Assembly (NCBI GenBank): GCA_002269645.1
Contig: NIVC01000944.1
Coordinates: forward strand, 248,001 to 312,000
Length of the DNA: 64,000 nt
Source of the DNA: Macrostomum lignano
Taxonomy: Eukaryota
Direction: 5' to 3'
Position 1 is the stretch's first letter; each line of letters starts with the position of its first letter. This document shows positions 23,324-54,332 of the stretch, piece after piece. Made by a program: the position numbers and the translations under genes. Under the pieces are notes generated by a model. The model saw nothing but the letters and a program-made list of their open reading frames with translations, made no database searches and had not been told where the DNA came from.

Positions 23324-24950
23324 GCCGCAGTGGTGCTGGTGCCCGGGCTGATGGGCTGGGGCCCCGAGGAGATGGAGACGCCGCACGGTCAGGTGCCGTA
23401 CTGGGACACCGGTGTGGCCGAGGACACGGACAGCTGCGGCCTGCCGCTGCTGCAGGCGTCTGTCGGGCCGGTCAGCTCGCAGCACGACCGCGCCTGCGAG
23501 CTCTTCGCCCAGATGCTCGGCCTGCGCACCGACTTTGGCGCCGAACACTCGGCCGAGTTCGGACATGACCGCTGGGGCTCAGATTTCAGCGGCCGGCCGG
23601 GGCTCTGGCCGGACTGGGGCCCGGACAGCCCATGCCATTTCGTTGGACACTCGGCCGGAGGGAATACGATAAGGTTAGTCCGGGGCCCGAATCCTCTACC
23701 TTTGTGATTGGCGCCTATAGAGTGGGGATCGAATCCCGTAGCTTTGGGATCAACGCCTATACAGTGGGGATCGAATCCCGTAGCTTTGGGATTAGCGCCT
23801 ATACAGTGGGGATCGAATCCCGTAGCTTTGGGATTAGCGCCTATAGAGTGGGGATCGAATCCCGTAGCTTTGGGATCAACGCCTATACAGTGGGGATCGA
23901 ATCCCGTAGCTTTGGGATTAGCGCCTATAGAGTGGGGATCGAATCCCGTAGCTTTGGGATTAACGCCTATAGAGTGGGGATCGAACCCTGTAGCTTTGGG
24001 ATTAGCGCCTATAGAGTGGGGATCGAATCCTATAGCTTTGTGATTAACGCCTATAGAGTGGGGATCGAACCCTGTAGCTTTGGGATTAACGCCTATAGAT
24101 TGGGGATCGAATCATGTAGCTTTGGGATTAGCGCCTATAGAGTGGGGATCGAATCCCGTAGCTTTGGGATTAGCGCCTATAGAGTGGGGATCGAATCCCG
24201 TAGCTTTGGGATTAGCGCCTATAGAGTGGGGATCGAATCCCGTAGCTTTGTGATTAACGCCTATAGAGTGGGGATCGAACCCTGTAGCTTTGGGATTAAC
24301 GCCTATAGATTGGGGATCGAATCATGTAGCTTTGGGATTAGCGCCTATAGAGTGGGGATCGAATCCCGTAGCTTTGGGATTAGCGCCTATAGAGTGGGGA
24401 TCGAATCCCGTAGCTTTGGGATTAGCGCCTATAGAGTGGGGATCGAATCCCGTAGCTTTGGGATTAACGTCTAAAGAGTGGGGATCGAATCCCGTAGATT
24501 GAAGATTGAATCCCACAGATTAATGATCGTGGACCATGGATTGAGGATAAATTGCCATGTGGGGATAAATTTCCAGAGGCTAGAGATCTATATAAGAAAT
24601 TGTAGCACTTCTGACAATCGCGATGCCCCCCAAACCCCGGCAGGCTGCTGCAGCACCTCTTGGCCACGGACTTCTGGGGCAGGGGCACCAGTGCGGCCTG
24701 GGTAAAGTCCGTCACCTGCATCGCCAGCCCGCTGAACGGGTCTACGGCCACCTACCTGTACGGCTCCAGCCGGGACACCGGGCTGTTCCAGTGGCCCAGC
24801 CTGGTGCCGCTGGTCAGCTGCGTGGAGCTCATCGAGACTCTGCAGGGAGTGCCGAGCGAGCGGCGGGGCCGCCTGCGACACTGGCGGCTGGAGCACTGGG
24901 GCGTTGAGAATGAGGATTTCAGGTGGGCTGAGCTGACTGACTTACTGACT

Positions 24951-24982
<32 letters not shown>

Positions 24983-25058
24983 GACTGACTGACTGACTGA
25001 CTGACTGACTGACTGACTGACTGACTGACTGACTGACTGACTGACTGACTGACTGATT

Positions 25059-25090
<32 letters not shown>

Positions 25091-25952
25091 GACTGACTGA
25101 CTGACTGACTGACTGACTGACTGACTGACTGACTGACTGACTGACTGACTGACTGACTGACTGACTGACTGACTGACTGACTGACTGACTGACTGACTGA
25201 CTGACTGACTGACTGACTGACTGACACTCCCATCCCGCAGGTCCTACTCCCGCCTGAATGCCAAGCTGCGCGGCCCCAGCCGGGTCTTCCTGACCGGCAA
25301 GGACAACCTGTCCTACGACATCAGCCTGGAGGGCGCCCTGGAGCTCAACGGCAGGATCGGCGCCGACCAGCCCGACTGCCACTACCTCAGCGTCCTCACC
25401 TGCTGCACCTCCTCTGCGCTTGGTGGCTTCGTACGGCCCTCTGGCCACTGCGGCGCCTTCCTCCTGCTGCCCTGCGCCTTCATGTGCGCCGAGCGCGTCG
25501 ACCACCGCCTGCCCGGCGCCGACGTCGCCGACTGGCGCCACAACGACGGCCTCGTGCCGCTGGGCAGCCAGCGCATGCCGTTTTTTGGCGCCAAGCGGCC
25601 GGCGCCGATTCAGCTGGACGGCGACGATGGTGCCGGCGGCGACACGCCGGACAGCAGCAGCAGCAGCTGGCGCCTCAGCGAGGCCGGCCGCTGGCACTGC
25701 GTGTGGGCCAACCGCCTGGCCGGCGACTCCGGCACCGACTGGGACCACAACGACCCCGTGTTCGGCCGCTCCCTCATCTGGGAGCCGCCGCGCCAGCGCT
25801 GGAGTTTCACCGCCGCTCTGCTAGACGGCGCCGCTGCCGCCGCGCGCTGGCTGGGGCTGCGCCGGGAGGGCGGCAGCTTCGCCAAGGTGGCGCGGGACAA
25901 ACAGAAGACTTTCTATGAGAGACTGTACCGGCTGCTGGCCGAGATCCCCTGA
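23324..25952 (+). CDS. Alpha/beta-hydrolase triacylglycerol lipase of the staphylococcal/Geobacillus (family I.5/I.6)-like type; exons 23324-23673, 24644-24922, 25241-25952; first exon not identified
   Basis: Motifs VVLVPGLMGWG...YW, HDRACELFAQ, GHSAGG (nucleophile Ser), SVTCIASPLNGS, YDISLEGALELN, WRHNDGLVPLGSQ (Asp), DWDH (His). Both introns are phase-2 consistent. Confidence 0.85.
23715..24500. repeat. 42-bp (21+21) minisatellite in lipase intron
   Basis: GGGATCGAATCCCGTAGCTTTGGGATTAGCGCCTATAGAGTG, about 18 copies. Confidence 0.95.
24932..25225. repeat. (CTGA)n microsatellite filling the lipase intron 24923-25240
   Basis: About 73 copies. Confidence 0.98.
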
Positions 25953-25984
25953 CTGTACCGGCTGCTGGCCGAGATCCCCTGACT

Positions 25985-26450
25985 AGGATCTCATTCTGTA
26001 TCTGTGGGATCTCATTCTGTGTCTGTGGGATCTCATTCTGTATCTGTGTGATCTCATTCTGTATCTGTGGGATCTCATTCTGTGTCTGTGGGACCTCATT
26101 CTGTATCTGTGTGATCTCATTCTGTATCTGTGGGATCTCATTCTGTGTCTGTGGGACCTCATTCTGTATCTGTGGGATCTCATTCTGTGTCTGTGGGATC
26201 TCATTCTGTATCTGTGTGATCTCATTCTGTATCTGTGGGATCTCATTTTGTGTCTGTGGGACCTCATTCTGTATCTGTGTGATCTCATTCTGTATCTGTG
26301 TGATCTCATTCTGTATCTGTGGGATCTCAGTCTATCTGTGGGATCTCATTCTGTATCTCTGGGATCTCAGTCTATCTGTGGGATCTCAGTCTATCTGTGG
26401 GATCTCATCAAATCTGTGAGATCTCATCAAATCTGTGGGATCTCATCATT
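25985..26450. repeat. 21-bp minisatellite GGGATCTCATTCTGTATCTGT downstream of the lipase stop
   Basis: About 22 variant copies. Confidence 0.95.
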
Positions 26451-30667: not shown

Positions 30668-32794
30668 ATGCAAGCGGTCAGACAGCGACGGCAAGCAGCC
30701 AAGCAAGCCTTGCGAAACTTGGGCCTCGACAGCGAATCGAGCGATGATTCGAGCTATGACTCATTTTTCACTGCCGAGAGCGAGGGAGAGGACGGTGACG
30801 AAAATCAAGAAGGCAACGATGGACCGGAGGAAGACGATCAGGGAATGATGCACGATGATTGGAGATCAGTAACTCCAGAGACCGATGCTCGAGCTAATTC
30901 CCTTCCCGAGTTCCTCGGGGCAAGCGGAGTCAATCCGGGATTCTCCGTACCTGCTGATGTTGACGACGGCTGGACAGCCTTTTTCGAGCAATTTTTACCC
31001 GATGAGTTGCTGCTTCAGATGTGCATGTGGACAAACAAGAGAGCGCAGCTGGACATTGCCAAGTTTCAAGAAGAACACGGAGATGATGAACTGCCTTACG
31101 GGCTCAGAACGTGGAAGCCCTGCACTGTTTCTGAGATGAAGAAGGTGATCGGCGTTATATTATATACCGGAGTTGTACAGAAACCGGAGGTGACGGCTTA
31201 CTGGTCCACGGACCCGTTTTACTTTCATCCCTACTTTCAAAGCATGAAGATGCTTCCTCGCTCGCGGTTTCAACAAATCATGTCATGGCTGCGTTGCTAT
31301 GACTGTCTTGACTTCGACGCTGGTGATCCCTTGTGCAAGATCAGGCCGTTCCTAGACATGGTCCAGACAGTTTGCAAGAACAGCTACCTGCCCGGTCAAA
31401 GCATTGCCGTTGATGAAGCGCTGCTGCTCTATAAAGGGAGGCTGATTTTTAAGCAGTACATGCCCAACAAGAGAGCCAAGTTTGGCATTAAATTGTACTG
31501 CCTTGCAGAGTCTTCTACAGGCTACATGTGGAACTATCTGATACATTCAACCACCATTGCGAATGAACAGTTCGGCAACGATGTGCCGCAGCTCTCAATC
31601 AGTGAGAGAGTCGTCGTAGAACTTTGTCGCGACATTCTGGACCTTGGATATCGGGTCTTTTGCGACAGTTGGTTTTCATCGGTGCGACTGGCCAAGTTCC
31701 TTCTGACCAGAGGAACAACCTTTTTTTTTTATTAGAGGCAGGGGGGTTGTGTGCACCCTGGCGCACTTTAAGCGACATTGGCACACAACCGGCGAGAGGC
31801 ATTACTGCCCATTCCGCCGACTCCCCTGAGCAGGCACACAAGCGCGCGGATACGTACGCAGGCACACACTCACACAGGAGTGTACAGCGGCCCTAACTTT
31901 ATTTTATCGCTAGGCATGTACACTTCACTGCGCCTTGGGGGGTTGGCTCTCAAGGCCGTTAATTGCACGAGCAGAGCCAAGCCGAGATTCCAATTCAGCC
32001 CCAAATTAATGTGACTGCACTTGGAATCGAGCCTGGGTCGCTGGCACACCAGAGCAGCTGCGCTACCGCTGGGCTACGGCCCCCCCTGAGGAACAACCTT
32101 AACTGGGACCGTTCGCAAAGACCGAGGCGTTCCACCGATTCTGCGAGATATGCTCTTGCAACCACCGAGTCATTCCTTTGCCCGACATGGTGACATCCTT
32201 GCTGTGAAGCTGGTTGACAGGCGAAGCTCAGGAACAAAGACGGTCTATCTGTTGGACTCCTCTTCAACAGCTGCTAGCTCTTTGGTTAGCCGGGTACTGC
32301 GCGGTGGTGTGGAGCATCAGCTCCTGAAGCCCAACTCGGTGTTGCAATATAATCAGAACATGGGAAGTGTGGATCGGATGGATGCCGCAGCCCAGCCTTA
32401 CAGCGCATGCCGCCGAACGCACAAATGGTTCGTAAAGCTGGCGGTGTTTCTGCTACAGCAGCTGGTTCGCAACTCCTGGATTGTGTACCGACATCTAGGT
32501 GGATCCATGAGCTTTCTCAGCTACACTGAAAGGTGTATAAAGCACTTGATTGAAAGCAGCGGAAATGGTCGATCGAGAGTTAAGCGTCAGGCTCTTCCCC
32601 GTAAGCCAGGCGACATTCATCACCGGCTGGAAAAGCTATCCGCTACCGCAGCACAAGAACGGCCTACCAAGCGTTGCCGAGTTTGTTACCAGCGCAGACT
32701 GAAAAAGCGGACCGTCTACTTCTGCCAAGGCTGTGACGGTCAGCCTGGGCTTTGCCTGGAGCCGTGCTTCTTTGAGTGGCACTCGGCTAACTGA
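30668..32794 (+). pseudogene. piggyBac transposase split by a SINE insertion
   Basis: DDD residues in AVDEALL, FCDSWFSS and YNQNMGSVDRMD; KYGIK-like KFGIKLY; C-terminal cysteine-rich domain CRVC...CQGC...LCLEPCFFEWH. Removing the SINE and one TSD restores the frame (LTRGTTLTGTVRKDR...MLLQPP). Confidence 0.92.
31723..32087 (-). mobile_element. tRNA-derived SINE, copy 2
   Basis: Same sequence as 4393-4755 with a few substitutions; 13-bp TSD GAGGAACAACCTT at 31710-31722 and 32088-32100. Confidence 0.92.
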
Positions 32795-33915: not shown

Positions 33916-34709
33916 AAATCAGATAGGCCAAAAAGCAGATGAGTGATAGACAGACCGAATGACGGCGAAGGACAAACAGAAGAGCGGAGAAGAGGGATCA
34001 CAAAGTTAAAAATACACTCGTAGATATTAAGCAGATAAAAATGTGCAGGTATTAGAGATATTTCAAAATGACAAATATTACAAATATTACGGGCCAGGAG
34101 TAAAAAAGTTTTTTGTTGATTTCAAGGCCTTTATGTTCAATAGATGGAATGGCAGCAAAGATTTTGCGCTGCTTTGCGCGCATATTTATATTTACAAGAT
34201 TCAGGGGGCCAAGGGGGGTGCGAAAAGGTGGCGTGATAAACTTAGACATAGGTTGGGGGTTGCAAGTGCGGCTGCACTGGTGCTGGCCGGTCACGTATAT
34301 TCTGGCCGTCACAGTACAGAATAATACGAGCTCGCAGAATAAGGATTTTTCGGAGATTTAAGTTTTTTTCGTTTTTAGACTTCGGGCTTTTGGTTAGAGA
34401 TACTGCTGGTGTAATACTTAAGCTCTGGGCTTAGCTTTTAGTATGGATAGAGAAGAGAACTTGTCTTCATTTCAGCTATGTACAAGTGACGAGGCTTTAT
34501 GCTCTCGGCACGGAACACTAACCCTGCTGAAGCCCCATTCTCTTAACTTAGCGCAGACTTTACTGTACTAATTTTTTCTCTCTGGGGCCTCTGCTTCAGT
34601 GTGGTGTCTTGGTAAGAAGTTTTCATTGTGTTCTTTAAGACACGCGAAGCACAAGGCCGAAATCATGGTTCTGATGCATGATGAGAAGCAGAAAATGTAC
34701 ATAGCTGTC

Positions 34710-35017
34710 AGTAGTAGTGTTATATAAGGGGTTGCGCCACACTTATTGCTCGGGCGCATTGCGCGCCAGCTCGCTGGATGACTCAGCCCCTTATAACATA
34801 CTACTACTACCAGGAGGTCATGGATTCAAGTGGGGTGTGATATGTAAATATATATATATATCTGTGAGTGAGGGTGTTGGGGGTGAGGGCATGTGGGGGC
34901 ATTGGCTTGTGGAATATTTCACAGAACACAGAATTTCCGGAATTTTTATACTTTTAAAAAGGGGGGGTGCCCTCGCCCTCATGCCCTCACTCATTTTGAA
35001 AATCACTAAAAATAAGT
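34710..35017 (+). repeat. Left terminal inverted repeat of the Polinton-like element
   Basis: Reverse complement of 48363-48669 with roughly 7-8 differences by eye. Confidence 0.95.
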
Positions 35018-35222
35018 GAAAAATGACTAAAAACAGGTGAAAATGGTCTGAAAACAGCGATTTTTTGTGATTTTCAAAAATTTTGAAAAAGTGCAATTTT
35101 CACGATTCCAGCTCTAAAACCATGAGAAAAGTTGGATTCACGGGTCAATTTAATGCAATTTCAGATATATACAATATGAAAGTGTCATCTAATTTAACGA
35201 TAGTAAATTTTATAAATATAAA

Positions 35223-36578
35223 ATGGCCTTCAGTAAACCATTATTTCTAGGAAATGCTTTAGATATTCAGTCAGCTATAACAAAACTACCACCCATCTTC
35301 GCCACTGGAAAATATCCTGGCGAATTTCATATTCCAGGGTATTCTTTCACTGGCCCAGGTACAAATTTAGACAAGAGACTCAATCCAATTACAGACCGGC
35401 CTCGGTATGACAGTCTACCAATTAACCCAATCGATTGGACTGCTTACTATCATGACAAAAACTATAGAGATGCCGAAAACACTTCTTCAAATCCAGAGGA
35501 AGCTCTAGCAAAGAAGCACATTGCTGATGAAAAAATGATAGCTGATTTAGATGCTATTCCAACCAGTGACTTGTCTGTGAAAGAGAGACTCATTCGAAAT
35601 CTAGTAAAGCGTATTATCAAGGCTAAAGTTCGGTTTGGATTAGGAATTCTTACTCACAACCCCAACAATTGTATAGACTGTCTAACCATATACGGCAATG
35701 GTCTTAGCTATGAAGATGCTTTGAAATTGCATAAAGAATATCGAAAGCCAAGAGTATTTAGAAAAATGATTCACTATGCAAAAGACACAATTTGGCATGC
35801 AGATATCATTATCCTTCCTCCTGAAAGAGGTTACAAATATGCCCTCACTATCATAGATGGTTTTACACGTTACGCCTGGGCAGTTCCTTTGAAAACAAAG
35901 ACGGGAGCGGAAGTTGCAGAAGCTTTCCAAAAAGTATTTAAGGAATCAGGAAGACGATCAGAGAGACTTTGTGTAGATGAAGGCAAGGAGTTTTATAATC
36001 AGCATATGTACAAGCTATACTCGTTTTCAAAAGACGACATAAGAAAGAAAGATGAAAATGGGGAGTATATTAACAAGATGTTCTCAATTTATGGTGAGTC
36101 TAAGAATGCAATGATTGAGAGGTTCAATCGTACTCTCACAAATAAACTCTAGTTTGAATTTGATCTACAAGGAAACCAGAAGTGGCTCCACATATTGCCA
36201 GCTATTGTTGAAAAATACAACACAATCCATTCTGAGATTCTGATAACTCCTTTAGAAGCATCTAAACATCCTGAGCGAGTACCAAAGCCTTCATTTGAGT
36301 ATTCAAATGAGAAACCAAACTTCAAAGTAGGTGACAAAGTTCATATCTATAGATATAAGGAGCACTTTGAAAAGGGTCGAAAAGGTTATTGGAAAATTTC
36401 ACAATTGTTTAGGATAAAGAAAATAGTTTATTCAAATCCCATAACCTACATTATTGAGGATGAGAATGGAGAAGAAATTATTGGATCATTTTACAAATCC
36501 CAGCTTTTACCAGCAAATTTTCCAACAAAAAATGAGCGCCAATCGAACACACTGCAAACGGGCGAAAGGTCAGATTGA
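35223..36578 (+). pseudogene. Parvovirus-type phospholipase A2 fused to a retroviral-like (rve) integrase; in-frame TAG at 36150-36152
   Basis: PLA2 motifs GYSFTGPGT (Ca loop) and DWTAYYHDKNY. Integrase motifs WHAD, IDGFTRYAWAVPLKTK, VDEGKEF, IERFNRTL. The frame continues after the TAG into KYNTIHS and FKVGDKV (SH3-like C-terminus). Confidence 0.9.
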
Positions 36579-36954
36579 AACGTCTGATTCACAACTACTA
36601 GCTGATAAAGAGGGTGAAGGAATTGGTGATATGATCAGTGGTGTCACAAACTTTTTATCAAATCATGGAAGTAAAATTGTGAGTGGAGCTGATGCAATAG
36701 GTAAAACAGCTACCACAGCGAAGAACATATTCGATGCGAAGAAATCATACAGTGACATGTCTAAAGCAGGTGAGGAACTGGAATATATTAAAAAGAAACG
36801 CCGAGAAAAGGAAGCAAAGAAAAGAATGGAAGAAGAGCATCAGATAGCTTCACAATCAAACAAGGCCATTCAAGATATTGTTAAAAAGGCTCTAGGAACA
36901 GCAGAACAGTCTCAAGTGTCTTTGAGACAAGGCAATGGTTTGAAGAAATTCTGA
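36532..36954 (+). CDS. Putative virion core protein with an adenovirus pVI-like amphipathic helix
   Basis: EGEG|IGDMISGVTNFLSNHGSK, a coiled coil and a C-terminal QGNGL. ATG in AAAAAATG context. Homology is by eye only. Confidence 0.5.
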   Translation: MSANRTHCKRAKGQIETSDSQLLADKEGEGIGDMISGVTNFLSNHGSKIVSGADAIGKTATTAKNIFDAKKSYSDMSKAGEELEYIKKKRREKEAKKRMEEEHQIASQSNKAIQDIVKKALGTAEQSQVSLRQGNGLKKF

Positions 36955-36962
36955 CCTTAAAA

Positions 36963-37420
36963 ATGAGCGAGAAAAACACTGAAGCAAGACTCAATCGATA
37001 TGTTCGAGAGGGAAAACCAAGATATGTTACTGTAAATAAGCAAAAGCAATATCTTTCTAAAGAGAAGATTCGAGAATTGCAAGAGAAACAGAAAGAACAT
37101 GAAGGTGGAATAATTCCTCTATTAGGCTTACTACCAGCAATTTTGGGTGGTATCGGAGCAGCCTCAGGAGTTGGTACAATGATTGCAAAAAGTGTAAATA
37201 CAGCCAACAATGCTAAGCATAATAAGAAAATAGAAAGCATTGAACGGCAAAAACTAGAAGAGTTGAAAAAGGCTCAAGGGAGTGGAGTGTTAGTTGATGC
37301 GGCTAAAAGAGTCGAACAAGTACCGTACCCAGCAAAGCAGTCAAGTGGCTGCTAAAGACTTTTAAAGTTGAAAAGGAGAAACAGGGTAATGGGATAATTC
37401 TTAGACCTCACGAAGCTTAG
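36963..37420 (+). CDS. Adenovirus pX/Mu-like core protein precursor; probable frameshift near 37310
   Basis: A basic N-terminus precedes EGGIIPLLGLLPAILGGIGAASG. A shifted frame ends KQGNGIILRPHEA* at 37420. Confidence 0.6.
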
Positions 37421-37440
37421 TTGAAATTTCTCGTATAAAA

Positions 37441-38592
37441 ATGGAGAACAAAAAGGATATACTGAACCTATATGAGAGCAAAACTTTTAGCTTTTTCAAA
37501 AAGAAAGAAGACTATATTAAGATTTCGCCCACACCAGGTAGCACTAATAATCTCAATGTTGCAGGAGGTCAAATAGTTCATGAAGTCAATTCAACAGAGT
37601 CATACATTCTCATGTCAGAGGCATTCGGTTTTATAAGATACTCGATAACACAGCGAGATAACACAGACTTGAATACGAACATTACTCTAGAACATAATTG
37701 GCCTATGCGTCTGTTTTCTCAACTTATTGTGGACATAGGAGGATCAAAGAAAGTATATAATGATCCTGGAGAGTATGACACAATCTTAAAGTCCGTAATG
37801 TACTCAAAATTAATGAATGAAGTTGGAGAAGCATACGGATGGATTCCAGACACTGGAGATGCTGGGACTGTTTCTGATATACCTCTAGCAAACAACGCAG
37901 ATGCTGAAGCTGTGAGAACTGCAGCAATCGCTATGAAAAATAGACTTAATAAGAAGGATTCGAATACTGGATACATTAGGAGGCTTGAAAATTATAATGT
38001 CACTAATGCTCCAAACAGAGGTGGAACAATCAAACTATCATTAACACCCCTCATTGGGTTCCTTGATTGGCAGAAGATTAGCAAAGGAATTAAATACAAA
38101 TTTACATGGACAAGAAAGACTAACGATGCTGAAATTTTCTTTGGAGCTGCTGGGACGGAAGCTAAGTTAACTATTAATAGCTTTGAGATTTGGATCCCTG
38201 CTATTACTTTGTCACTCAGTGCTGAAGAAGCTTTTCTAAAATCACTCAACAAGGACATTACAGTATCATTTCCAGAGAGGGTAACGGTTCCGCCACAACT
38301 CATTCAAGGAAGTCCATATACATGGAACATAACCAGCGTCTCCAATATGCCACTTGCAATCTTTGTAGCCTTCAAATATGACGTAAACAATCCATCATAT
38401 ATAGTTAATGATCACAAGTATGTATCTTACAAGACTGGAGCAAATGCAGTAAAAATAACCCAGCTTCAAGTCAGATTAAATCAGGCGATGTATCCAACTG
38501 ATTATGTTGATATTGATCCAGTAGCTCAAGACATTCATAAAGCGTATGAAATGTACGAGGACATCTGCAGCCATTTCGGTGTAACTCCGTGA
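37441..38592 (+). CDS. Double jelly-roll major capsid protein (Polinton PY/hexon-like), probably C-terminally truncated
   Basis: LFSQLIVDIGG...NDPGEYDTILKSVMYS, PLIGFL, KLTINSFEIWIPAI, QLQVRLNQAMYP follow the Polinton MCP pattern as I recall it. Beta-rich, 383 aa, ending abruptly at a small duplication. Confidence 0.75.
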   Translation: MENKKDILNLYESKTFSFFKKKEDYIKISPTPGSTNNLNVAGGQIVHEVNSTESYILMSEAFGFIRYSITQRDNTDLNTNITLEHNWPMRLFSQLIVDIGGSKKVYNDPGEYDTILKSVMYSKLMNEVGEAYGWIPDTGDAGTVSDIPLANNADAEAVRTAAIAMKNRLNKKDSNTGYIRRLENYNVTNAPNRGGTIKLSLTPLIGFLDWQKISKGIKYKFTWTRKTNDAEIFFGAAGTEAKLTINSFEIWIPAITLSLSAEEAFLKSLNKDITVSFPERVTVPPQLIQGSPYTWNITSVSNMPLAIFVAFKYDVNNPSYIVNDHKYVSYKTGANAVKITQLQVRLNQAMYPTDYVDIDPVAQDIHKAYEMYEDICSHFGVTP

Positions 38593-38666
38593 TGAGGATG
38601 TAACTTCGGTGATGAGGATGAGCAAGATTTGTATAAGGATGTTCTAACTAAAATCCCATTGTAAAA

Positions 38667-39398
38667 ATGACTAATGAATATATAAGACAACTCATTAATT
38701 TAGCAAAGCAGCGAGAAATGTACAAATCCAGAAATGATGCTCAACGCTATTTGAAAATTGGAGAAGAGAGTTTATATGCAAGAGTGGCTCCATTAGCTCA
38801 AAAACCTGTCACAGAAAAGCTTGATCAATTTATTGATGTCAATGCCAACCTTGTTGATAAACTTCAGAATCAAAAAGTTCCAGTTCCGCAATCAAGTACA
38901 CCAAAAGGACGATTTGAACCTCTGGAAGTATTTGACAAAATAATTGAAGAAATTGGAAAGATTCCAATAACTCAAAGACCAGCACCTAGTATACGAATTC
39001 AAAAAACAGATGCTGGATATATATTTGGATCATCTGTAATAGATGTTGAATTCCATGAACAAGGTCGAGACATCATTGTCAACGAATTTCGAATGCCATT
39101 TTCTGAAGATCTTGAAGAGTTGTTCAAAATGCCTAAAGTAACTGAAAATGGTGAAGAGCTGAAGCAATTCAAGATGCAAACATTGCAGGATTATGTTAAC
39201 CTCATTGAACACTGTAAAAATCCAGCAGCCAAATCAAGTGGGAATTATAAGCAAGCAGTAAGGATATTGAAAGATAATCCACCAGGATATCGAGTAAAAC
39301 CGGGATCTGGACTCAGTGAAAGAGTGTTGACATTACTAGCCGCAAAAGCAGAGGGACATAACAATGTTGATAAAGAGCTAGAAGAATTACTTGCTTAA
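38667..39398 (+). CDS. Uncharacterised Polinton-type protein, 243 aa
   Basis: Open frame with a TAAAAATG start and a KPGSGL motif near the C-terminus; no function assigned. Confidence 0.6.
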   Translation: MTNEYIRQLINLAKQREMYKSRNDAQRYLKIGEESLYARVAPLAQKPVTEKLDQFIDVNANLVDKLQNQKVPVPQSSTPKGRFEPLEVFDKIIEEIGKIPITQRPAPSIRIQKTDAGYIFGSSVIDVEFHEQGRDIIVNEFRMPFSEDLEELFKMPKVTENGEELKQFKMQTLQDYVNLIEHCKNPAAKSSGNYKQAVRILKDNPPGYRVKPGSGLSERVLTLLAAKAEGHNNVDKELEELLA

Positions 39399-39400
39399 AA

Positions 39401-40194
39401 ATGGAAAAAGAAATAGAAAAAGTCAACATCCTCATGAGTAAAAAGTTTCAACGCACATTTGACTTCTTTTCAATTAAAAACCCATTTCGACAAACTCTAG
39501 GCACTCCGATAAATTTGTATGAAGATCGAGAATACGAAGCTGGTATAAAAAAGTTTGCAGTATTTGATGCCATTAACAATATTGAAGGAGGCAATAATGA
39601 GTTGCGATACTCGAGGGATAGTGGTAGAACATGGAAAAAAATAAAGATTCAAGCAGGATCTTGGGAAGTTAAAAGTCTGTCAAGTGAGATTCAAAGATTG
39701 CTAACAGCTGCAAATGATTGGAAAGAGGGAGCTATTGTCTTCAGTGCAAGCCTAGACACGCGTAGAGTTGAGTTACGGTTAGCCACAGATTATCAAGTTG
39801 ATTTCAGGGATGCACATTCCAATAATTTTAGAAGAGACTGTTGGGATTCAATTCAGAAGTGTATTTGAAACCATTTGAGAGAGCTCCAAATCCAGCTCGG
39901 ATAGACGGAGCTAGAAGTGCGATCATGGTTCGTTGTCTAAATATCAAAGGGGGTTTTATCACTAATCCAGCCAATGGAAATCATTTAATTGATAAGCAAA
40001 TACTTCTTTCAATTCCATCGTTCTCTGTCCCAATGGGAAGTAAAATTATTCAAGAGCCTGCAAATCCTGTGTACCTACCACTAACTACAAACATGTTGAG
40101 CACATTCGACTTTGTCATTGAAGATGAGTCTGGTGTTCTATACGACTTTGATGGCGAGGAAATATTTATAAATCTACACGTACGACAAATATGA
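39401..40194 (+). pseudogene. Single jelly-roll minor capsid (penton) protein; frameshift near 39835
   Basis: INNIEGGNNELRY...KIQAGSWEVKSL, then (shifted) LLGFNSE...IIQEPANPVYLPL...YDFDGEEIFINLHVR. Confidence 0.8.
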
Positions 40195-40203
40195 GTGTTA
40201 AAA

Positions 40204-40635
40204 ATGAGCGAAGCTGAGACATGGAATGCATTTAAACAAAAGTTTGGGACTGACACTACGACTAATATTGATCTGATAAATTGGGCAAAATATCTCAAGT
40301 TAAAACCATTTCGCTATGCCATGAGAGATGAAATTATTGATTTACCACAGTATGGTTACTTTATGACAAATATTCACACTTCGAAAGAACGGGGTATACA
40401 TCATTCAGCTATCTTTTCAGCTCCTGATAAGGTTTATTTTTTTGATTCCTATGCACTACCGCCCACACTAGAAATTATGGAAAAGTTTAATCACACAAAG
40501 AATAGAATATGTGGAGACATGGAAGAACAAATTCAAACTTTAGATAAGAAATTTTGTGGTCAAATGTCGCTGTACTTTTTACATCGAATCGATAAAGGAG
40601 ATAGCTATAATGAAATTTTGCAGCAATTAAAATGA
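40204..40635 (+). CDS. Adenain-like (C5) cysteine maturation protease
   Basis: NIHTSKERGIHHSA (His), FFDSY (Asp), QIQ...FCG (Gln, Cys). Confidence 0.85.
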   Translation: MSEAETWNAFKQKFGTDTTTNIDLINWAKYLKLKPFRYAMRDEIIDLPQYGYFMTNIHTSKERGIHHSAIFSAPDKVYFFDSYALPPTLEIMEKFNHTKNRICGDMEEQIQTLDKKFCGQMSLYFLHRIDKGDSYNEILQQLK

Positions 40636-42009
40636 GTTACAAGAATACTGCCAATCAATTTGGTTACTCGTCAAATTCAAATGATATAGCACCTGGAATA
40701 ACAATAGCGTTAGCTGATGATCGATACATCAATGAAAATGAAGGATATAAGAGAGAGGAAATAGATAATTTATTGTTAGCAAAGAGAAATGTTTCAGACT
40801 CTTATTCAAAGGAAGATAGTGACGCAATGAATATCACCATGCTAAAATTAATTGACGATGCTCATGGGCGCGTAAACAATGTCTACACAAAAACCGAAAT
40901 TGACACTATGATGTATTCTAAAACTGAGATTGACACTAAGATGTATTCTAAAACTGAGATTGACACTTTGTTAGCGGAAAGGCAAGGTACTGCGGCAGGT
41001 ACAGAGAGTTCGAAATTAGTCAATATTCTTTCATTACTGACTTCAAACGCTTCCCATCCTGACATGAAAGTGACCGCTTCTCATAACTCTTCAGCAGCAT
41101 ATCATGTTGCAGATTCAAACCCAGCTTCAGAATGGAGCAGTGTAGATGACTCAGACAAGTGGATACGATTTCAATTTTTGAAAAGAGCTAGGAAAGTTGT
41201 AGAGATAAAGTTGGAAGGAGAGGTGTGGCCTGGTTGGTCTGTTAGTGTGAGCCTAAATGGAACAAACTGGACACCTGTTGAACAAAGTGCACCCATTGAA
41301 CTACGAAGGGCAATGCACATCTTAGGAAAAAATACCCAATCCCTCATATTATTTCCATTATTCTCTTAATTTTTCTGGTTCCGTAAAGCTTACAAAAGTT
41401 GAATTACTTGAGAGACAAACAGTGGTTAATGATTTAGTGTGGCCTATAGATAGACTTCAAGCTGTACCAAAGCTATACGTAGACAATGCACTTGAATCAG
41501 TGGAGCTGCGACTAAGGCGGGGACTAGGTTTCAAATCTTATACAGGATATATCCCCCCACTAGCAACACGTCAAAACTATAGAGAAAGGGGTTTCAATGT
41601 AGCGTCATCAGGAGCATTTGAAACGTCAGATAATTGGGGTTATATAGTATCTAATTCAGAATGGGCATCGAGGAATGAACCCAATTCTTACATTGAAGTA
41701 CAACTTCCCGAGTCTATTCAAATTTGGAAATTCGGATTGAAAGGAACCAAAGCAGTAGGTAGTGAAATTATAAAAAATCAACCAAAAAGTTTTATTTTAA
41801 AAGGTAGCAATAACAAGAGAGACTTTAAAAATATTTTTTCTACCGAAAACGCTGGTTTAGTTCCTGGAGTGATGAAGTATTTCGAAGTAGCTTTCACCGA
41901 AAAATTCTCCGTTTATAGAGTGCATATTAATTCGGCCACTGAAGGATCAACTGTTCTTATAGTTTCAGGCTTTCAACTTTATCCGATTTTAGACATAATT
42001 GCCACATAA
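40632..42009 (+). pseudogene. Fibre/receptor-binding-like protein with Y(S/T)KxEID repeats and two discoidin (F5/8 type C)-like domains; +1 frameshift in an A6 run at 41327-41332
   Basis: YTKTEIDT/YSKTEIDT x3. Domain 1: VTASHNSSAAYHVADSNPASEWSS...WIRFQF. Domain 2: VASSGAF...WAS...SYIEVQLP...FILKGSNN...FSVYRVHI. Confidence 0.65.
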
Positions 42010-42011
42010 AA

Positions 42012-42745
42012 ATGAATGATAAAAATGAACACATCTATCCTGTGGTTGAGCTGCATGAAGCAGATTTGAGGGAGCGGGACTATTTCAACCAGAGAAAGGG
42101 TGAAATCAAAGGCAGTATTGAATGCATTACTAAAGATCTTACAATTTATAGCAAAAAGGTAAAAAAGAAAAAAGGATAAATTGGATCAACATTGTGACAG
42201 GAAATGTAAGTCTCTTGGCTGCTACAGGAATTGGCATAGCAACATCGATACTGATATTGAATCCCTTAGTCATTGGAGTAGTAATCGGGGCAATGAGTGG
42301 TTTTGAAGCTGTAAAATCCACGTCGTTGTTTGCAACTGTGAAAATGCATTGCCAAAAGCAGAAGGCAAAATACATTGTTCTCAGAGATCTGGCAAATCAA
42401 TATAGAGAGAGATTGTATATTTACTCCCAAAAAGCAGTTGATGATTATAGATTAACTCTTGAAGAGGTTCAAGCAGCTGCTGCAATTTATTCAGAATACA
42501 GAGAGAAAAGAGATCAATTGTTAGACACCTGTGTTGCGCCTGAAGAAGTTAACCATTCGGAAGTCGTTGATAAAATCCTTAAAGAGAGTAGACTTGGTCA
42601 ATCAGCGAAGGAAAAAATTAAAAAGGAACTGCTGGAGAAAGATCTGAGAGAAAAATTGGGTCAAAGCCATTGGGATAAGCCAAAAGAGTACTCGGCAACA
42701 CTCAATCTTCAATCAAATGCTCCAAGTGCGCCCCCCTATGCTTGA
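42012..42745 (+). pseudogene. Small membrane protein with two hydrophobic helices; frameshift at ~42165
   Basis: A TAAAAATG start at 42012 reads to TAA at ~42177; the -1 frame continues into VSLLAATGIGIATSILILNPLVIGVVIGAMSG. Confidence 0.55.
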
Positions 42746-42770
42746 GTCTGTTTAATTTTTTTTCTTAAAA

Positions 42771-45700
42771 ATGGAAATGAAAATACCAGCGGCCTCTTAT
42801 GAATTTGATCTCGACTCCGTTGAAGAAATTCCCGGTTTAATCTCCCCAATTCTTTCTAAACATTTGATGACTAGAGATTCAATAAAATACAGAATTTCCT
42901 TTGTCGCAGAATTTTATAAAGGAACTACCGACAGTTGGATTGAGTTCCAATATCATTCAAAGTATCGAACTTTGTTAAATCTGCTTCAAGTTGAAGATAG
43001 TATTGAAAGTACAATAAGGGATGTTCTGGATGAATTTGATGAATGGAAGGATAGTTTTAATGAAAGGGGATCGGGATATTATTTTGTTAAGTTAGTAAAG
43101 ATTGTGTTGAAAGTTGTTGGCATTAATCAGTTGAAAGGAGGAACTTATATTCCAATTCCAATTAAATCAAACGCATTAGTAAATGTTAAGAACACTAAAG
43201 ACAATAGGTGCTTTCTCTGGTCTATTTTAGCAAAGCTCCATCCTGTGAAGGAACATAGATATAGAGTTGGTAAGTATACACAGTATATAAATGAAATAAA
43301 CTTAGGAGACGTTAAATTTCCAGTGGACATTCGAGATATCTCTGATATTGAAAAGTTGAACAGTCTTCATATAAATGTGTTTGGATTGAGAGATATAAAT
43401 ACTAAAGAGTCAATATATTCTATTCGTCTGACAGAAGATTACGACAACCCCGATGTTATTGATTTACTACTTGTTGAAAATCATTATTGCTTAATAACAG
43501 ACTTGTGTTTATTCCTCACGTCCCAAAATTACAACAGGGTTTTTCTTTGTCGAAAGTGTCTTCAAGTCAAATACTCCCAGGATGCACTGGATAATCATAA
43601 AGCAATCTGTAATGACTTCAAAGTGTCAATTGAAGTTCCAAAGATTGATAAGAGGATATTAAAGTTTAAAAACTACCACATGAGTGTAAGAAAGCCATTT
43701 GTGTTTTATGCTATATTGGATTATGTAACTTTGGATGATAAATCGCTAGAACTATCACAATGGACACTTTTTACTAGTTCTGATTATGAAGACATTATAC
43801 AGTCGGATATTATTTCAAATACTACAGTGGAATCATTCGTTGAAACCGTAATAAAAAAGTTTGAGCATATAAAAAATGAAATGGATAGATATAAACATCC
43901 AAGATTAAGTGATGTCGAAGAGACTGATTACAAAGCGGCAGAACAATGTTTTCTCTGCTCAAGGCCATTTGTAGATAGTAAAAAAATTCGAGAGCATAAT
44001 CACTACAATGGTAAATATCGCGGCGCAGCATGTCAATCATGTAATACCAAGGAGGGCAAGGCGAATCAAACGGTGCCATTGTTTCTCTTGAATGAATCTG
44101 GAAAAGATCTAAACTATTTGATAGTTCCATTAACAAGAATAAAGAATGCAGCATATAAATTGGATTTCATTTCTAAAACATCTGATGACCATGTTGCAAT
44201 CAAGTGGGGGAATTATACCAGTGGTGTTGTGTTTTTAGATGGATCTAGGTTTTTGGAACCACCATTTACACTCTCTGAAGAAGAAATAAAATATTTGCCA
44301 CCCAGTGATACAACAGCAGTAATTAGAAAGATTTACTCATTTGTCAATGCTTTTGAGACGTTTCGATCAACATTTTTGAAATATTTCAAGATAGATCCTG
44401 CGTATTGCTTTTCCCTTTCTGGATTATCGTGGGCATGTGGGTTGAAATATACCAATGTGGAATTGGAATTACTTGGTGATAAAGATATGATATCCATGGT
44501 AGAAAGTGGTATTCGCGGCGGTTTCTCTGGAGTTCTTGGAGAAAAATGAATAACAAGTATTTAGAAAATTATGACAGCAATTCTGAATCGTCGTACATGC
44601 TATACTTGGACAAGAATAATTTATATGGTGAAGCAATGATGAAAAATCTACCTGTGGGAGATTTCAAGTTTGAAAATGATCTAGAGTATCACAAGAATAT
44701 TCCCCAATGGCAGGGGTTGTTTTCTTGAAGTTGACCTTGAATATACAGAGGAATGTAAGAAAGCTACAAGTAAATATCCACTGGCTCCTGAGAAACGAAC
44801 AACTAGATTTGAGGATTTATCTGATATACAAAAGCAATATCTTGAAGTCGAAAAGAAAAAGTTTGTTCAATCCAAGTTGATGTTGACATTTTACAACAAG
44901 GAGAAATATGTTTTACATCACAGACTACTTGAGTTTTATGAGAAGATGGGCATGCGAGTTATGAGAGTTCATAGAATTATTTCATTCAAAGAATCAAACT
45001 GGTTGAGTAAATACATCGAATTTAACACCAGGCGGAGAATGGAAGCAAAAACTAAATTTGAGAAAGACCTGTGGAAACTACTAAACAACTCATTCTACGG
45101 TAAAACAATCGAAAATGTAAAGAATAGGTCGAACTTTCATCTTGTAGCTGAAGAAAAAACTGCAAGGCGTTATTTTTCTAAACCAAATTTCAAAGATTTC
45201 ATTATGTTTAGTGAGGATGCGGTTGGTATCCAAATGTACAAAAAGACAATTGCGTGTGACAAGCCAATTTATTTAGGAATGGCTATTCTGGATTATGCAA
45301 AAATGCTAATGTACGATTGCTATTACAATGTTATTGAGAAGAATTGGAACAGCTGTCAATTGCACTATTCTGATTGTGATTCGCTAATATTCTCAGTGAT
45401 TACTCAGGATGTTTATGAGGATCTTGAAAAAATTAAATAACACTTAGACACATCGGATTATCCAAGAGAGCATCCACTATACTCCGAGAAGAATAAGAAA
45501 GTCATTGGAAAGTTGAAAGATGAAATGAACGGTTCAATAATTTCCGAAGCTGTATTCCTGCGGTCAAAGGAGTATGCTTTCACTACAGTTTCAGGGGAGT
45601 GTGTTAAGATTAAGGGAGTTGATAAAGGCAGTACAAATATAAAGTTTGAAACATTTAAAAACATACTATTGACAGATTACAAAGATATTCAAAGAGGTAG

Positions 45701-45830
45701 AGTAAGTATGACTGTATCTGAAAAAAATAAAATATATATTCGTGAGATTATGAAACAAACAATGAGTCCGTTAGATGATAAAAGATATTATTTGGATCCT
45801 ATCAGATCTATTCCTTATCAGCCAATGTAA
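42771..45830 (+). pseudogene. Protein-primed family B DNA polymerase; frameshifts at ~44545 and ~44705, in-frame TAA at 45438-45440
   Basis: CFLWSILA, endonuclease VII-like CFLC...EHNHYNGKYRGAACQSCN, GIRGG, YLDKNNLYG (motif A), KLLNNSFYGK (motif B), YSDCDS (motif C), GKLKDE, KGV, DDKR. Confidence 0.95.
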
Positions 45831-48317
45831 TCTCATTGATAACATCTTCGTTTATTTTTTTCGTGCACTGTAGCAACACATTTCTAGTTTCTTGCTGTTT
45901 ACCATCTATCCTACGCCTATATCTATCCTTATAATACTTACAATAGTCTTTGTGATTCTTGAAGAAATCTGTTATGTATTGTTGTTGGAATTCACGTTTC
46001 TCACGTTGGGCTAGAGTCCTATAGTATTCACTCTCTGTTGCGGCAGTGTAAATTTCTCTAATAAGCATAAATGTTTTTTCCTCAGTTTCTAAAAATTCAT
46101 AATTCTCTTCAAAGAAGTGAGAAAACCAATTACAATTTTGTATGAATTCATTAGTGTTTTCAATTACGCTTTTCGATCGATATATTTCACCCTTTGTTTG
46201 CTTGAAAATTTCTAGTAGGTTTTTCATCTCAGCAAACTTATATTTATTCTTAAATTCCTCGGTTTTAAGATATGAATCGGCTTTATAAATGTGTTTCGCA
46301 TGATCAATGATGTCGGTATCTGTTGTATATTTACATGGGTAATTAATATTTATAATTCGTCTTTTTTCTGCATCTCCAATATTTTGTCTAAAGTCAGGCT
46401 TGTTATTACATTCGACTATCAGAGTTGCGTGTAAAACGACATTACACTGGCTTGAATATAAATTTCTAGCTTGGATAACCCCACCAACAGTTAGTAATTT
46501 TATTGATGCATTGTTCAAGACACCACTTACTTCTTGACTGATAACCAACCTCTTTTTAATAATTTTTGCTAGGGCTGGTTGTGGCATGTCTATTCTTATT
46601 GGTAAATTCAAAACATCAGGACTCAGTGGTGCTGCATAATCAGATCCTAGATTTCTAAGAAGTAGGTTGTCCTCAACCCCTTGCCATTTCCACCAGCGCC
46701 ATCAAACATTATAAAGTTTTCAACATTCTTACCCATTAGAGCTGTGGCTATAACGGATTCCCAACTCTTTCTGTTTTCTGGATCGGGATGAATTTGGTTA
46801 TGCAGATTAACAATGAACTCATAGTCGTCATCACTCACTCCAAGTACATCCGAGTAATTATATCCCACCGATTTAGTAACGTAATCGTCAAATCTATACT
46901 CGCGAAACTCACCTGTAAGGAGGTCGTATACTCCATCGTTAAACCCTAGCAAATTCCATTTCATGTCGAATTCAATTTCATTGTTAGTAAACCTCTCTTT
47001 GAACAAAGTAGTTACCTGTTTGAGTTTGTTGGCTCCTTGTATTGAATTTATATTCTTCATTGTACTCTGTAGTTTCTTTTCAAGTGCTTTTAACTTTTCT
47101 TTATCATCAGCCGCCTTCTTAATTGCAATTTCGAGTCTAGTCTTTCGGTGGTTTAACTCACTGCTAACAAGGTCTGATATTTTAAGAAATATGTCATTTA
47201 TACTACTTAGTTCTCTCCACTTATCATCATCAAAATAGTAAACACCATCGCTATTGTAAATTATATTATTCTTCTTATATTCATAAACAAAGTTGGTTAT
47301 GTTAACGTCAGTGAAATTATCATCAAGATACTCAATCCTACCATAATAATCATATTTGCTTTTCCATTCCTTATATTTACAATAATTTTCTTCACTAGCC
47401 CATTTCTTTAGTGTACCGATAGTAAGTCTGTCCTGTGCATCAGCAGAGCTGGTATTGGTGCTATTCCACACATTTTTACATGCCTCGGAATCGAACTTAT
47501 CATAATTTACTTTTGACCAATCAGTGAATACTTTGTACATTTCATCACCACTGTCTATGTCGCGGAGTATAAGTGCTACCTTGTACCAAGAATCATAGTC
47601 TTGGTTTTTGTGCTGTATTATACTTAACAACTTTGAAGCTCCTTCACAAGTGGGTGGTTGAACGGTGCTTTTTAGTGCCTGTTTATCGGGTTCTTGGTTT
47701 TCTTTTTTATCCTGTGGCTTTATTAATCTATTTATCTCATCAAGAATTACAACTGGCATGTCTATTAAACATTTGGACTTTGTACGTTTGTATTCCTTAA
47801 TTTCACCATCGACATAATAGAAACCTGGTGGAGCAAATACTAAGGCGGGAATATCAAAACCCACACTTTGTTGAATCGTTACTTTCAATCCATCTACCTT
47901 GTTAAAGTAAAAGTGATGACCCTTGTTTGTCTGAACAATCCAATCACAATGAGTCATACACAGTTCATTCAACTCAGGGCATAGGTCAGCATTATCAATA
48001 TCGATTATGGTTATATTTGAGTTTCTAGTATCTATCCAAATCATGTTGTCTACATCTGGTCGAAATGGTGGTGAGGTTGAATTCCTATCTGCTTTGGTTG
48101 GCATTCCTGATGGTATTTTTTTCTTTGTTTTACTATTCCATGTTACACTGCAACTTCCGAATCTAAAATTAAGTTCTCCATAGAGATTAATTAGTTTATC
48201 GTACGATTTTGTTTGTTCTAAATTTGTCAATCTTGGTGGTGGGGCATCATGGTTTTGAAGCGGATCCTGTACGATCACAGGAGAGAAACTTGAATCGTTT
48301 TGATTTTTTCTTTCGAT
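45808..48317 (-). pseudogene. Prim-pol/PriCT-2/D5-like superfamily 3 primase-helicase; frameshift at ~46680, start codon possibly mutated to ATC at 48317
   Basis: IIDID, QTNKGHHFYF and VFAPP (prim-pol); YDSWYKVALIL...WSK...KFD...W (PriCT-2); LLGFNDGVYDL (D5_N); GAGGNGKG (Walker A); KRLVISQE (Walker B); QARNLY; RRIININY. Confidence 0.9.
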
Positions 48318-48362
48318 TTTATTTAAAATAAATTTAAATATATTAATTTAAATTTAAATTTA

Positions 48363-48669
48363 ACTTATTTTTAGTGATTTTCAAAATGAGTGAGGGCATG
48401 AGGGCGAGGGCACCCCCCCTTTTTAAAAGTATAAAAATTCCGGAAAATCTGTGTTCTGTGAAATATTCCACAAGCCAATGCCCCCACATGCCCTCACCCT
48501 CAACACCCTCACTCACAGATATATATATATTTACATATCACACCCCACTTGAATCCATGACCTCCTGGTAGTAGTAGTATGTTATAAGGGGCTGAGTCAT
48601 CCAGCGAGCTGGCGCGCAATGCGCCCGAGCAATTAAGTGTGGCGCAGCCCCTTATAACATACTACTACT
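48363..48669 (-). repeat. Right terminal inverted repeat of the Polinton-like element
   Basis: Matches 34710-35017 in reverse complement. Confidence 0.95.
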
Positions 48670-49307
48670 GCTGTCTGCTTGTCGGGAGGCAAATAGCATT
48701 ATATATATGAGCGTAACTTGGGAGTTTCGCAACTTAGAGATGCGGCATTCGCTCGGTAAAGCTATGTGCTCTTCAACAAACAAAATACAAGCTTCCGAAG
48801 CTCACCTTTAATATCGCCAAACATAGCAAGCAATTATATCGTTGGAGAAAGTGAGTACATGAAAATTTGATCGTGTTGTTACCTTTTTGTTAGATGCCGA
48901 TCATTCTAATCTTTGTAGCCCTTGAATGTTCAGATATGCTCAGCAACATTGAAAAGTTGCCGCTCTATGCGCCAGTGAGCAATTTCTCTTGGACCATTCT
49001 GAAATAAAAGACTGAAATAAAAGACGAAAAAACTGATCGGGGTAGCTTTAATCCGTCCAACCCTCGCACACCGCTCCACCACTTCATTCCACAACTCAAG
49101 TCTTCCGTCGCGTAGCTGAGTTGCGTCACTCACAAATATTGAGAGACTTTACCTACACTCTCAAAAGTGGCCACCACGGACGAAATCTTCTGTGATGGCG
49201 ACTTTTCGATGTTGCTAAGTATATACCATTGACTGTTCAGATATGTCTTTGAGTAGTAGGCATGATGACAGTTCCAGGCCAAAATTGTCAAAATCCCCCT
49301 TAGATCC

Positions 49308-54000: not shown

Positions 54001-54332
54001 TTTCTTTTATTCCGGATAAGGGCACTGTAGTCTGTGAATCAATTGCCATTGCAATAGCTGTTGCTATGTTTATCATCAAGCTGATCAGAATAACTCGCAA
54101 TTATTCTCGCAACAGAATGTCTGGCAATGAGTTTCGTGTTGAAAGGAAGAGAGCGATATTCCTGTTTGTAGCTGCAGTTGCTGGAGTGATCACAACTGCT
54201 GTAGTGATGACTGCATCGCCTCATTTCGTACTTGGCTTCCTCTCCACTGTGGCGATCGCGGCTGCTCTTGGTCTTGGAGCAGCCGGCTTATGTCGTGCGC
54301 CAGCTGCATACCGAATGATGACTGAGCCTTGA
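51019..54332 (+). CDS. Tandem LRAT/H-NC (permuted NlpC/P60)-domain protein with C-terminal transmembrane helices; Q-rich exon ending at 51213 spliced to the long exon 51735-54332
   Basis: Five repeats of a GDH...H...A.SR.G....Y....NCEHF-type module; only the last has YFNCEHL. Phase-0 TCT|GTAAGT...TTTCAG|ATG junction. The 5' start of the upstream exon is uncertain (50899 or 51019). Confidence 0.7.
51260..51635. mobile_element. Probable MITE in the LRAT-gene intron
   Basis: Inverted ends CAGGGGCGTCGCCA / TGGCGACGCCCTG; no clean TSD seen. Confidence 0.55.

Follow-up and report, generated by a model that had tools for sequence, protein, structure and literature searches.

The window analysed here is a stretch of 64,000 nucleotides from Macrostomum lignano (assembly GCA_002269645.1, contig NIVC01000944.1, positions 248,001 to 312,000, forward strand). 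It contains an element of 13,960 bp (34710-48669), in which a gene joining a phospholipase A2 (PLA2) domain to an integrase is the first ORF. The features of the element are as follows.

34704..34709, no strand: left target-site duplication, 6 bp, identical to the six bases at 48670-48675
34710..35021, no strand: left terminal inverted repeat with AGT repeats at its start; identical to the right repeat at 303 of 310 aligned positions, with 3 gap positions
35223..36578, plus strand: PLA2-integrase fusion gene, its frame broken by one stop in the Macrostomum lignano window copy
35322..35633, plus strand: parvovirus-type PLA2 domain, aa 34-137 (PF08398)
35634..35705, plus strand: flexible linker; GX|G motifs at two places (G139-L-G141 and G158-N-G160), no A-run and no slippery heptamer
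35706..36149, plus strand: LHK motif of the integrase N-terminus, with the catalytic core (D194, D252, E299; PF00665, E 4.4e-10)
36150..36152, plus strand: premature stop at codon 310, private to the window copy or to the assembly
36153..36578, plus strand: C-terminal part of the integrase, frame unchanged past the stop; related integrases align by tblastn to about 36520
36460..36954, plus strand: small GxG-bearing ORF of uncertain true start, resembling 'Cytocx' of Adinto6405 by eye
36963..37355, plus strand: stand-alone pX-like protein (GG|IIPLLGLL), matched by BLASTP to the pX-like part of the L006 PLA2X (44% over 50 aa, E 3e-5)
37441..38592, plus strand: capsid gene (PF21738, E 9.4e-10)
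38667..39398, plus strand: conserved ORF with a GSG motif near the C-terminus, resembling 'P5669' of Adinto6405 by eye
39401..40194, plus strand: penton-like gene in two frames, split near 39830 (tblastn E 1.9e-22 in two frames)
40204..40635, plus strand: candidate maturation cysteine protease, open frame; 35% identical to the L001 homolog (E 5e-18), with matches from 6 loci
40632..41922, plus strand: fibre-like gene in pieces, with an F5/8 type C-like domain (PF00754, E 4e-6, below the cut-off)
42771..45830, plus strand: protein-primed PolB, broken (tblastn E 5e-82 to the L010 polymerase); identified from its motif and context rather than from Pfam
45808..48104, minus strand: primase-D5 helicase gene in two ORFs (PF08706, E 4.5e-12; PF08707, E 8.6e-12)
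48359..48669, no strand: right terminal inverted repeat, pairing with the left repeat
48670..48675, no strand: right target-site duplication, the same six bases as on the left

The element shows the traits of polintoviruses: inverted repeats with a 6-bp duplication, PolB together with an rve integrase, major and minor capsid proteins, and a cysteine protease. The capsid was recognised by PF21738 and matched its counterpart in L065 (E 8e-10); the penton and the protease were recognised via related loci. The N-terminal part of PolB matched L007 (E 3.5e-22) and L010 (E 6e-49). In the protease candidate, His, Asp, Gln and Cys stand in what we take to be the expected protease order; searches of Pfam and of PDB sequences gave no family and no credible match for it. 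At least five genes are broken, the integrase and PolB among them. The element is a decayed Polinton/adintovirus copy. No packaging ATPase (FtsK/A32) was found in the element with three ATPase queries and Pfam on 19 ORFs, and its only Walker A motif is that of the helicase. The element has no room for an ATPase, yet its genes include a protein-primed polymerase as well as a primase-D5 helicase, and it may be a helper-dependent or deleted form. The N-terminal part of the polymerase (42771-44549) also contains an Endonuclease VII-like domain (PF02945, E 1.6e-7), which is present in L010 as well.

Adintoviruses are defined, in the relevant part of PMC11071296, by an integrase with a C-terminal chromodomain, a PolB whose N-terminal domain is OTU-like, and a hexon recognisable by BLAST against references. 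Neither a chromodomain nor any other Pfam family was found in 36153..36578, and the chromodomain is likewise absent from P0002, P0007 and P0034. It was found in the integrases of L010, L040, L045 and L065. The PLA2X type of protein has a C-terminal pX-like domain on its PLA2; in the window, the pX-like protein is encoded apart from the PLA2, by the ORF at 36963.

The ORF at 35223-36152 encodes 309 aa. It matched PF08398 (PLA2) at aa 34-111 with E 3.8e-9 and PF00665 (rve) at aa 186-262, both above the Pfam cut-off, and the two domains are joined in one frame with zero stops between them. The sequence-only reading had described an intact PLA2 with a GPG loop, HD and Y, continuing without a stop via KVRFGLG (aa 135-141) and YGNGL (aa 157-161) into the rve domain. 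Both statements were borne out by the Pfam match, the ORF and the residues G44-P45-G46, H77-D78 and Y81. Together with D71 and D102, the window PLA2 thus has the calcium-loop GxG, the catalytic HD, the Tyr and the second Asp of PF08398. In an alignment of 27 sequences, H77, D78, Y81 and D102 of the PLA2 and D194, D252 and E299 of the integrase are invariant. With Foldseek, the PLA2 domain matched an entomopoxvirus PLA2-like protein (E 3.6e-4), and the integrase domain matched a foamy virus integrase (E 1.7e-6). Structural superposition of the PLA2 domain on rice PLA2 (2wg7) gave a middling to weak score (Z 6.8, rmsd 3.9, 91 aligned); that of the integrase domain on the SIV intasome gave Z 14.0 (rmsd 2.6, 111 aligned). 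The AlphaFold model of the fusion (mean pLDDT 77.8, pTM 0.42) consists of two folded domains and a low-confidence or disordered linker, with pLDDT below 50 at positions 141-155 and 157-161. The window gene is therefore a real in-frame PLA2-integrase fusion.

The frame is not open up to 36578, as had been implied for 35223..36578. The stop at 36150-36152 removes the last 141 codons, so the full-length protein cannot be made by the window copy, which is a non-functional relic. Sister copies were observed as contigs from sequencing runs of the same organism. In contigs from 4 of 4 runs, codon 310 differs from the window at full depth; the break is thus private to the window copy or to this assembly. 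No indel was listed in the linker of the run contigs, and one contig is gap-free across 35501-35815. Among the 40 of 87 window-versus-contig differences that were listed, 35 fall within the gene but outside the break; 33 codons are affected, of which 20 are silent and 13 changed, with 0 stops. The sister copies hence retain the fusion, which had been named as a point to check. In 2-3 runs, a minor contig type lacks some of the linker and of the integrase start (window 35649-35888); it represents a deleted sister copy or a subfamily.

To survey relatives, protein searches were run with profiles built from the fused alignment; both domains were present in 40 of the 120 listed matches of the first search and in 46 of 144 new matches of the second. 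At the level of loci, the fused architecture was found in 12 of 105. Relatives with 35-82% identity to the window keep the fusion. The loop, the HD..Y and the second Asp are retained in 50 of the 59 complete fused PLA2 domains (27 partial domains excluded). In four fused pairs the dN/dS of the PLA2 was 0.10-0.25, with dS near saturation in three of them. On a quick tree of 92 rows, whose sampling favours fused rows, the window falls within a 24-row clade in which all members are fused (SH-aLRT 99). The fusion, for which a search of relatives and domain architectures had been proposed, thus marks a whole clade. These comparisons indicate that it is conserved, under purifying selection and not copy-specific. 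A chance read-through peculiar to one copy of a decayed element would be in keeping with the at least five broken genes; we regard it as extremely improbable and rejected it, since the fusion is carried by the relatives, by the sister copies and by an independently annotated virus, Adinto6405. The rarity implied by the sequence-only reading did not hold up. The architecture is already largely common, as judged from the two protein searches, from two ESM Atlas clusters of 67 and 88 members automatically named for PLA2-integrase architecture, and from labels in a literature supplement described below. A DUF5679 zinc ribbon lies upstream in 2 of 86 fused proteins. Other domain orders were seen among P0050, P0145 and L029, namely PLA2-DUF5679-integrase in P0050 and an in-frame DUF5679-PLA2-integrase without an A-run in L029.

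The linker was analysed in 72 fused proteins, which are the 86 minus 14 lacking HD..Y. A GX|G or GG motif is present in 65 of the 72 linkers against 3.7 expected. Across the 27 aligned sequences G139 is invariant, in a linker whose remainder ranges from a few to more than 70 residues. GX|G motifs were also found in four other ORFs of the element. According to parts of PMC6048507, the mavirus protease is specific for GG|X and GX|G; two proteins of the mavirus virion are the integrase and a hydrolase, the latter cleaved close to a GK|G. The proposal that the GxG motifs of the linker are a protease site fits this specificity; by analogy, the linker may be cleaved by the protease of the element. 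GxG also terminates stand-alone PLA2X domains, so the linker GxG may be an inherited site and not one kept to free the integrase. The fusion could also work uncut, with the PLA2 as a permanent tether that holds the integrase at the core or at membranes of the endosome or nuclear envelope, and with a GxG that is a hinge or a leftover. The seven linkers without a motif, the several linkers of just 10-15 codons, and the fused proteins without a chromodomain (P0007, P0034 and L001), for which another targeting part could be useful, speak for such a tether. The invariance of G139 in an otherwise variable linker, the model with no fixed domain arrangement (pTM 0.42) and the recurrence of GX|G in four other ORFs speak against it, and we consider a permanently uncut protein rather unlikely.

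In 22 of the 105 loci, the integrase is immediately preceded by a PLA2 ORF that is discontinuous with it. The integrase is in the -1 frame in 14 of them, in +1 in 4, and in frame with a stop elsewhere in 4. Further split loci were sought in viral and genome contigs, where 1, 2 and 3 loci were found, with a junction in L107 only; it is a further +1 junction and brings the +1 loci to five. Those split PLA2 genes whose start is visible have a CxxC...CxxC domain (DUF5679) at the beginning, and their frames close a few codons past GxG-KK. The overlap contains a strict in-phase slippery heptamer (X XXY YYZ) in 10 of the 14 -1 loci, against 0.76 expected from the same loci, and in 0 of 13 fused loci (Fisher p 1.5e-4). 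The first ATG of the integrase comes only after the first catalytic Asp in 12 of the 14 -1 loci, and the other two have a usable ATG. In the control, 63 of 69 integrase ORF pieces from loci without an adjacent PLA2 have their own ATG (5 contig-edge pieces excluded). Many split relatives therefore combine a heptamer in the overlap with a downstream ORF lacking its own start, as expected for -1 frameshifting. Pairs of Lys-Lys/Asn codons are slippery at 12 of 25 tail positions versus 6 of 78 elsewhere (12 loci; the pairs are not independent). No A-run or slippery heptamer was found in truly fused lineages, and no A-type heptamer in the Lys tails of 7 stand-alone PLA2X genes.

The short protein was represented in 3373 homolog clusters. 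In clusters of as many as 2359 members the short ORF is the prevailing form, and 14 of 15 listed members share the end point. Identical short proteins were found from independent sources. When 260 stored tails were decoded against integrase junction peptides, 141 gave -1, 37 gave +1, 28 were ties and 11 were in frame; of the remainder, 37 had no junction and 6 were unusable. Many of these tails are not independent, having their source in a small number of multi-copy genomes. Strong hairpins of the 12-bp class, 5-7 nt after the heptamer, were found in L043, L048 and L058 (z -4.0 to -5.0). Of the stimulatory 3' RNA structure that a programmed -1 site is expected to have 5-9 nt downstream, 9 of 12 sites showed nothing significant. 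A crude pseudoknot scan scored above shuffles for L048 and L058 only. RNA structure shared across the split loci was not found, the DNA alignment showing conservation of the A-run and of coding sequence only.

This data can also be read without ribosomal frameshifting: the split form may result from polymerase slippage on the A-run, a non-ATG start, splicing, or decay and assembly errors of an always-fused gene. We consider this unlikely. A-runs are hot spots of indels and sequencing errors, which weighs against the frameshift reading, and the +1 offsets (37 of 260 tails and five loci), the 9 of 12 sites without a stimulator, the usable ATG in two loci and the lack of a strict heptamer in 4 of 14 speak for such alternatives. 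Against them stand the dominance of the short ORF in large clusters, the identical short proteins, the missing A-run in truly fused lineages and the three sites with hairpins; pure decay would not be expected to prefer -1 four to one. No pyrimidine-rich acceptor was found near any junction (maximum 0.64, a weak test of splicing), and polymerase slippage would yield the same fusion protein anyway. On balance, we find it fairly probable that a programmed -1 frameshift adds the integrase to a zinc-ribbon-PLA2 core protein, of which a few such extended copies would be packaged, and that lineages of the window type repeatedly froze an in-frame, protease-cut fusion.

In L039, L050 and L107 and in the cluster of P0337, most of the observed members with a junction have the integrase in the +1 frame of the PLA2, and the P0337 family has two A-runs in tandem. 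These junctions could be explained by two slips in succession, by a -2 slip or by decay. PLA2X is joined in frame to the protease at L004:340-1371 and L007:471-1535, and in L005, L006, L008 and L009 it ends in a Lys run right before the protease. A parallel, Gag-Pro-like junction for PLA2X-protease is possible. PLA2X and PLA2X-Adenain are listed for one and the same virus in the part of the PMC11071296 supplement that covers it.

On the integrase tree, the fused forms are interspersed with the split ones. A single origin of the fusion was rejected by the AU test (p 1.1e-5; 46 fused rows among 77), as was monophyly of the 17 rows that are split or carry the zinc ribbon (p 7.7e-4). These tests used 77 rows, the 15 excluded from the 92 being long branches, one unclear row and five single fused copies of split families. 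The trees are quick and have no firm root, and module recombination could be the source of the interleaved pattern. The direction of change between split and fused forms is what we infer.

The explanation which we favour, and hold to be probable, is that a large branch of Alpha-type polintoviruses (adintoviruses) produces its integrase by translating it as an extension at the C-terminus of a PLA2 virion protein, with which it is delivered before being cut free. The architecture and the sequence signals behind this explanation were observed. We infer packaging, cleavage, lipase activity and frameshifting as the steps that would connect them. In split lineages the main product would be the short core protein, zinc-ribbon(DUF5679)-PLA2, with small amounts of the long form arising via -1 frameshifting; fused lineages would make PLA2 and integrase at 1:1. 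Being a PLA2 extension would bring the integrase into the particle, and the cysteine protease of the element would cut at GX|G during maturation, freeing both parts. Parvoviral PLA2 acts in endosomal escape. The freed PLA2 would breach the endosome in the same way, and the integrase would travel with the genome. Counting against this explanation are the window element without a packaging ATPase, the +1 families, the few stimulators and the fused linkers lacking a cleavage motif.

The closest known case is found in the Buck et al. 2024 preprint (PMC11071296), where entries of supplement file 2 label Adinto6405 and Adinto15303 as 'PLA2-integrase', at 2 of 59 'PLA2' places. The adintovirus section of that preprint, taken as a whole, contains no mention of PLA2-integrase. 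The sequence-only reading had placed PLA2 in adintoviruses only as separate or structural ORFs. In its supplement entry, Adinto6405 has the same in-frame architecture as the window and, by eye, a matching gene set (Cytocx, Hexon, Macc, P5669, Penton, Adenain and PolBa). That its fusion is accompanied by hexon, penton, protease and ATPase speaks for the favoured explanation. It has an ATPase and no listed primase-helicase, whereas the window copy shows the reverse. PLA2X, described for Mayetiola-class Alpha adintoviruses in parts of PMC8502044, is likewise a parvovirus VP1-like PLA2 with a proposed role in membrane disruption at entry. It differs in carrying a pX-like domain and in being accompanied by a separate integrase gene with its own ATG and a chromodomain (L005-L009); in the window, the PLA2 is joined to the integrase, and the pX-like protein has its own ORF. 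The words 'fused' and 'fusion' were not found in the main text of PMC8502044. In mavirus, as reported in parts of PMC6048507, an rve integrase and a hydrolase are also virion proteins, and the protease has the GG|X and GX|G specificity; unlike here, the integrase (MV02) and the hydrolase (MV13) are separate products, and the hydrolase has an alpha/beta fold, not that of PLA2.

In the Gag-Pol of retroviruses and LTR retrotransposons, the integrase extends a structural protein, either through a -1 frameshift or in frame depending on the lineage, and is released by a protease. In contrast, the element described here belongs to a dsDNA virus with a jelly-roll capsid, a protein-primed polymerase and no reverse transcriptase; the carrier is a zinc-ribbon-PLA2 or a PLA2 instead of Gag, and the cysteine protease would act in trans. 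In the passages of PMC11071296 on slippage, -1 slips are proposed for Penton and Hexon-Adenain only, not for the integrase. Its supplement entry for Adinto13074 shows a zinc-ribbon-PLA2 followed by an 'Integrase' whose annotated start is a Met past the motif of the first catalytic Asp, the outcome expected if a frameshift had been overlooked. A DUF5679 protein was reported, in part of PMC11131425, from more than 40% of coral elements, with its function given as unknown. Nothing on a PLA2/integrase junction was found in the portions covered of PMC11161782, PMC3671162, PMC13215967, PMC11296320, 10.1101/2023.08.22.554363 and 10.64898/2026.10.13.758929. A full-text literature search did not find 'PLA2-integrase', with subscription journals, Repbase notes, GenBank feature tables and bioRxiv supplements outside its scope. 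'Polinton' and 'slippery' occurred together in PMC11071296 only; the frameshift idea could stand in subscription journals, Repbase notes, feature tables or supplements.

The fusion itself is known from one supplement label, common in databases and of a barely described kind; alone, it is modest news. Seen alongside the -1 junction of its relatives, it suggests an undescribed strategy by which polintoviruses express their integrase, and the switch from frameshift to fusion is what raises the interest. A PLA2-integrase chain offers a concrete route by which animal polintoviruses might bring the integrase into a new cell. If this is true, a dsDNA virus has converged on the retroviral solution, and thousands of annotated 'integrases' in this branch are N-terminally truncated, with the first catalytic Asp missing. 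Integrase starts in this branch are probably mis-called.

Three further features of the window were noted. Just upstream of the element lies a broken piggyBac-type transposase (30668-32794, plus strand; PF13843, PF13842). Two short-period tandem repeats at 24919-26309 read as SVSQ and MRSHRYR pseudo-ORFs. Outside the element, at 51735-54332 on the plus strand, there is an open ORF of 865 aa; it has apparent repeats as well as an LRAT/NlpC-like domain (PF04970, E 2e-10).
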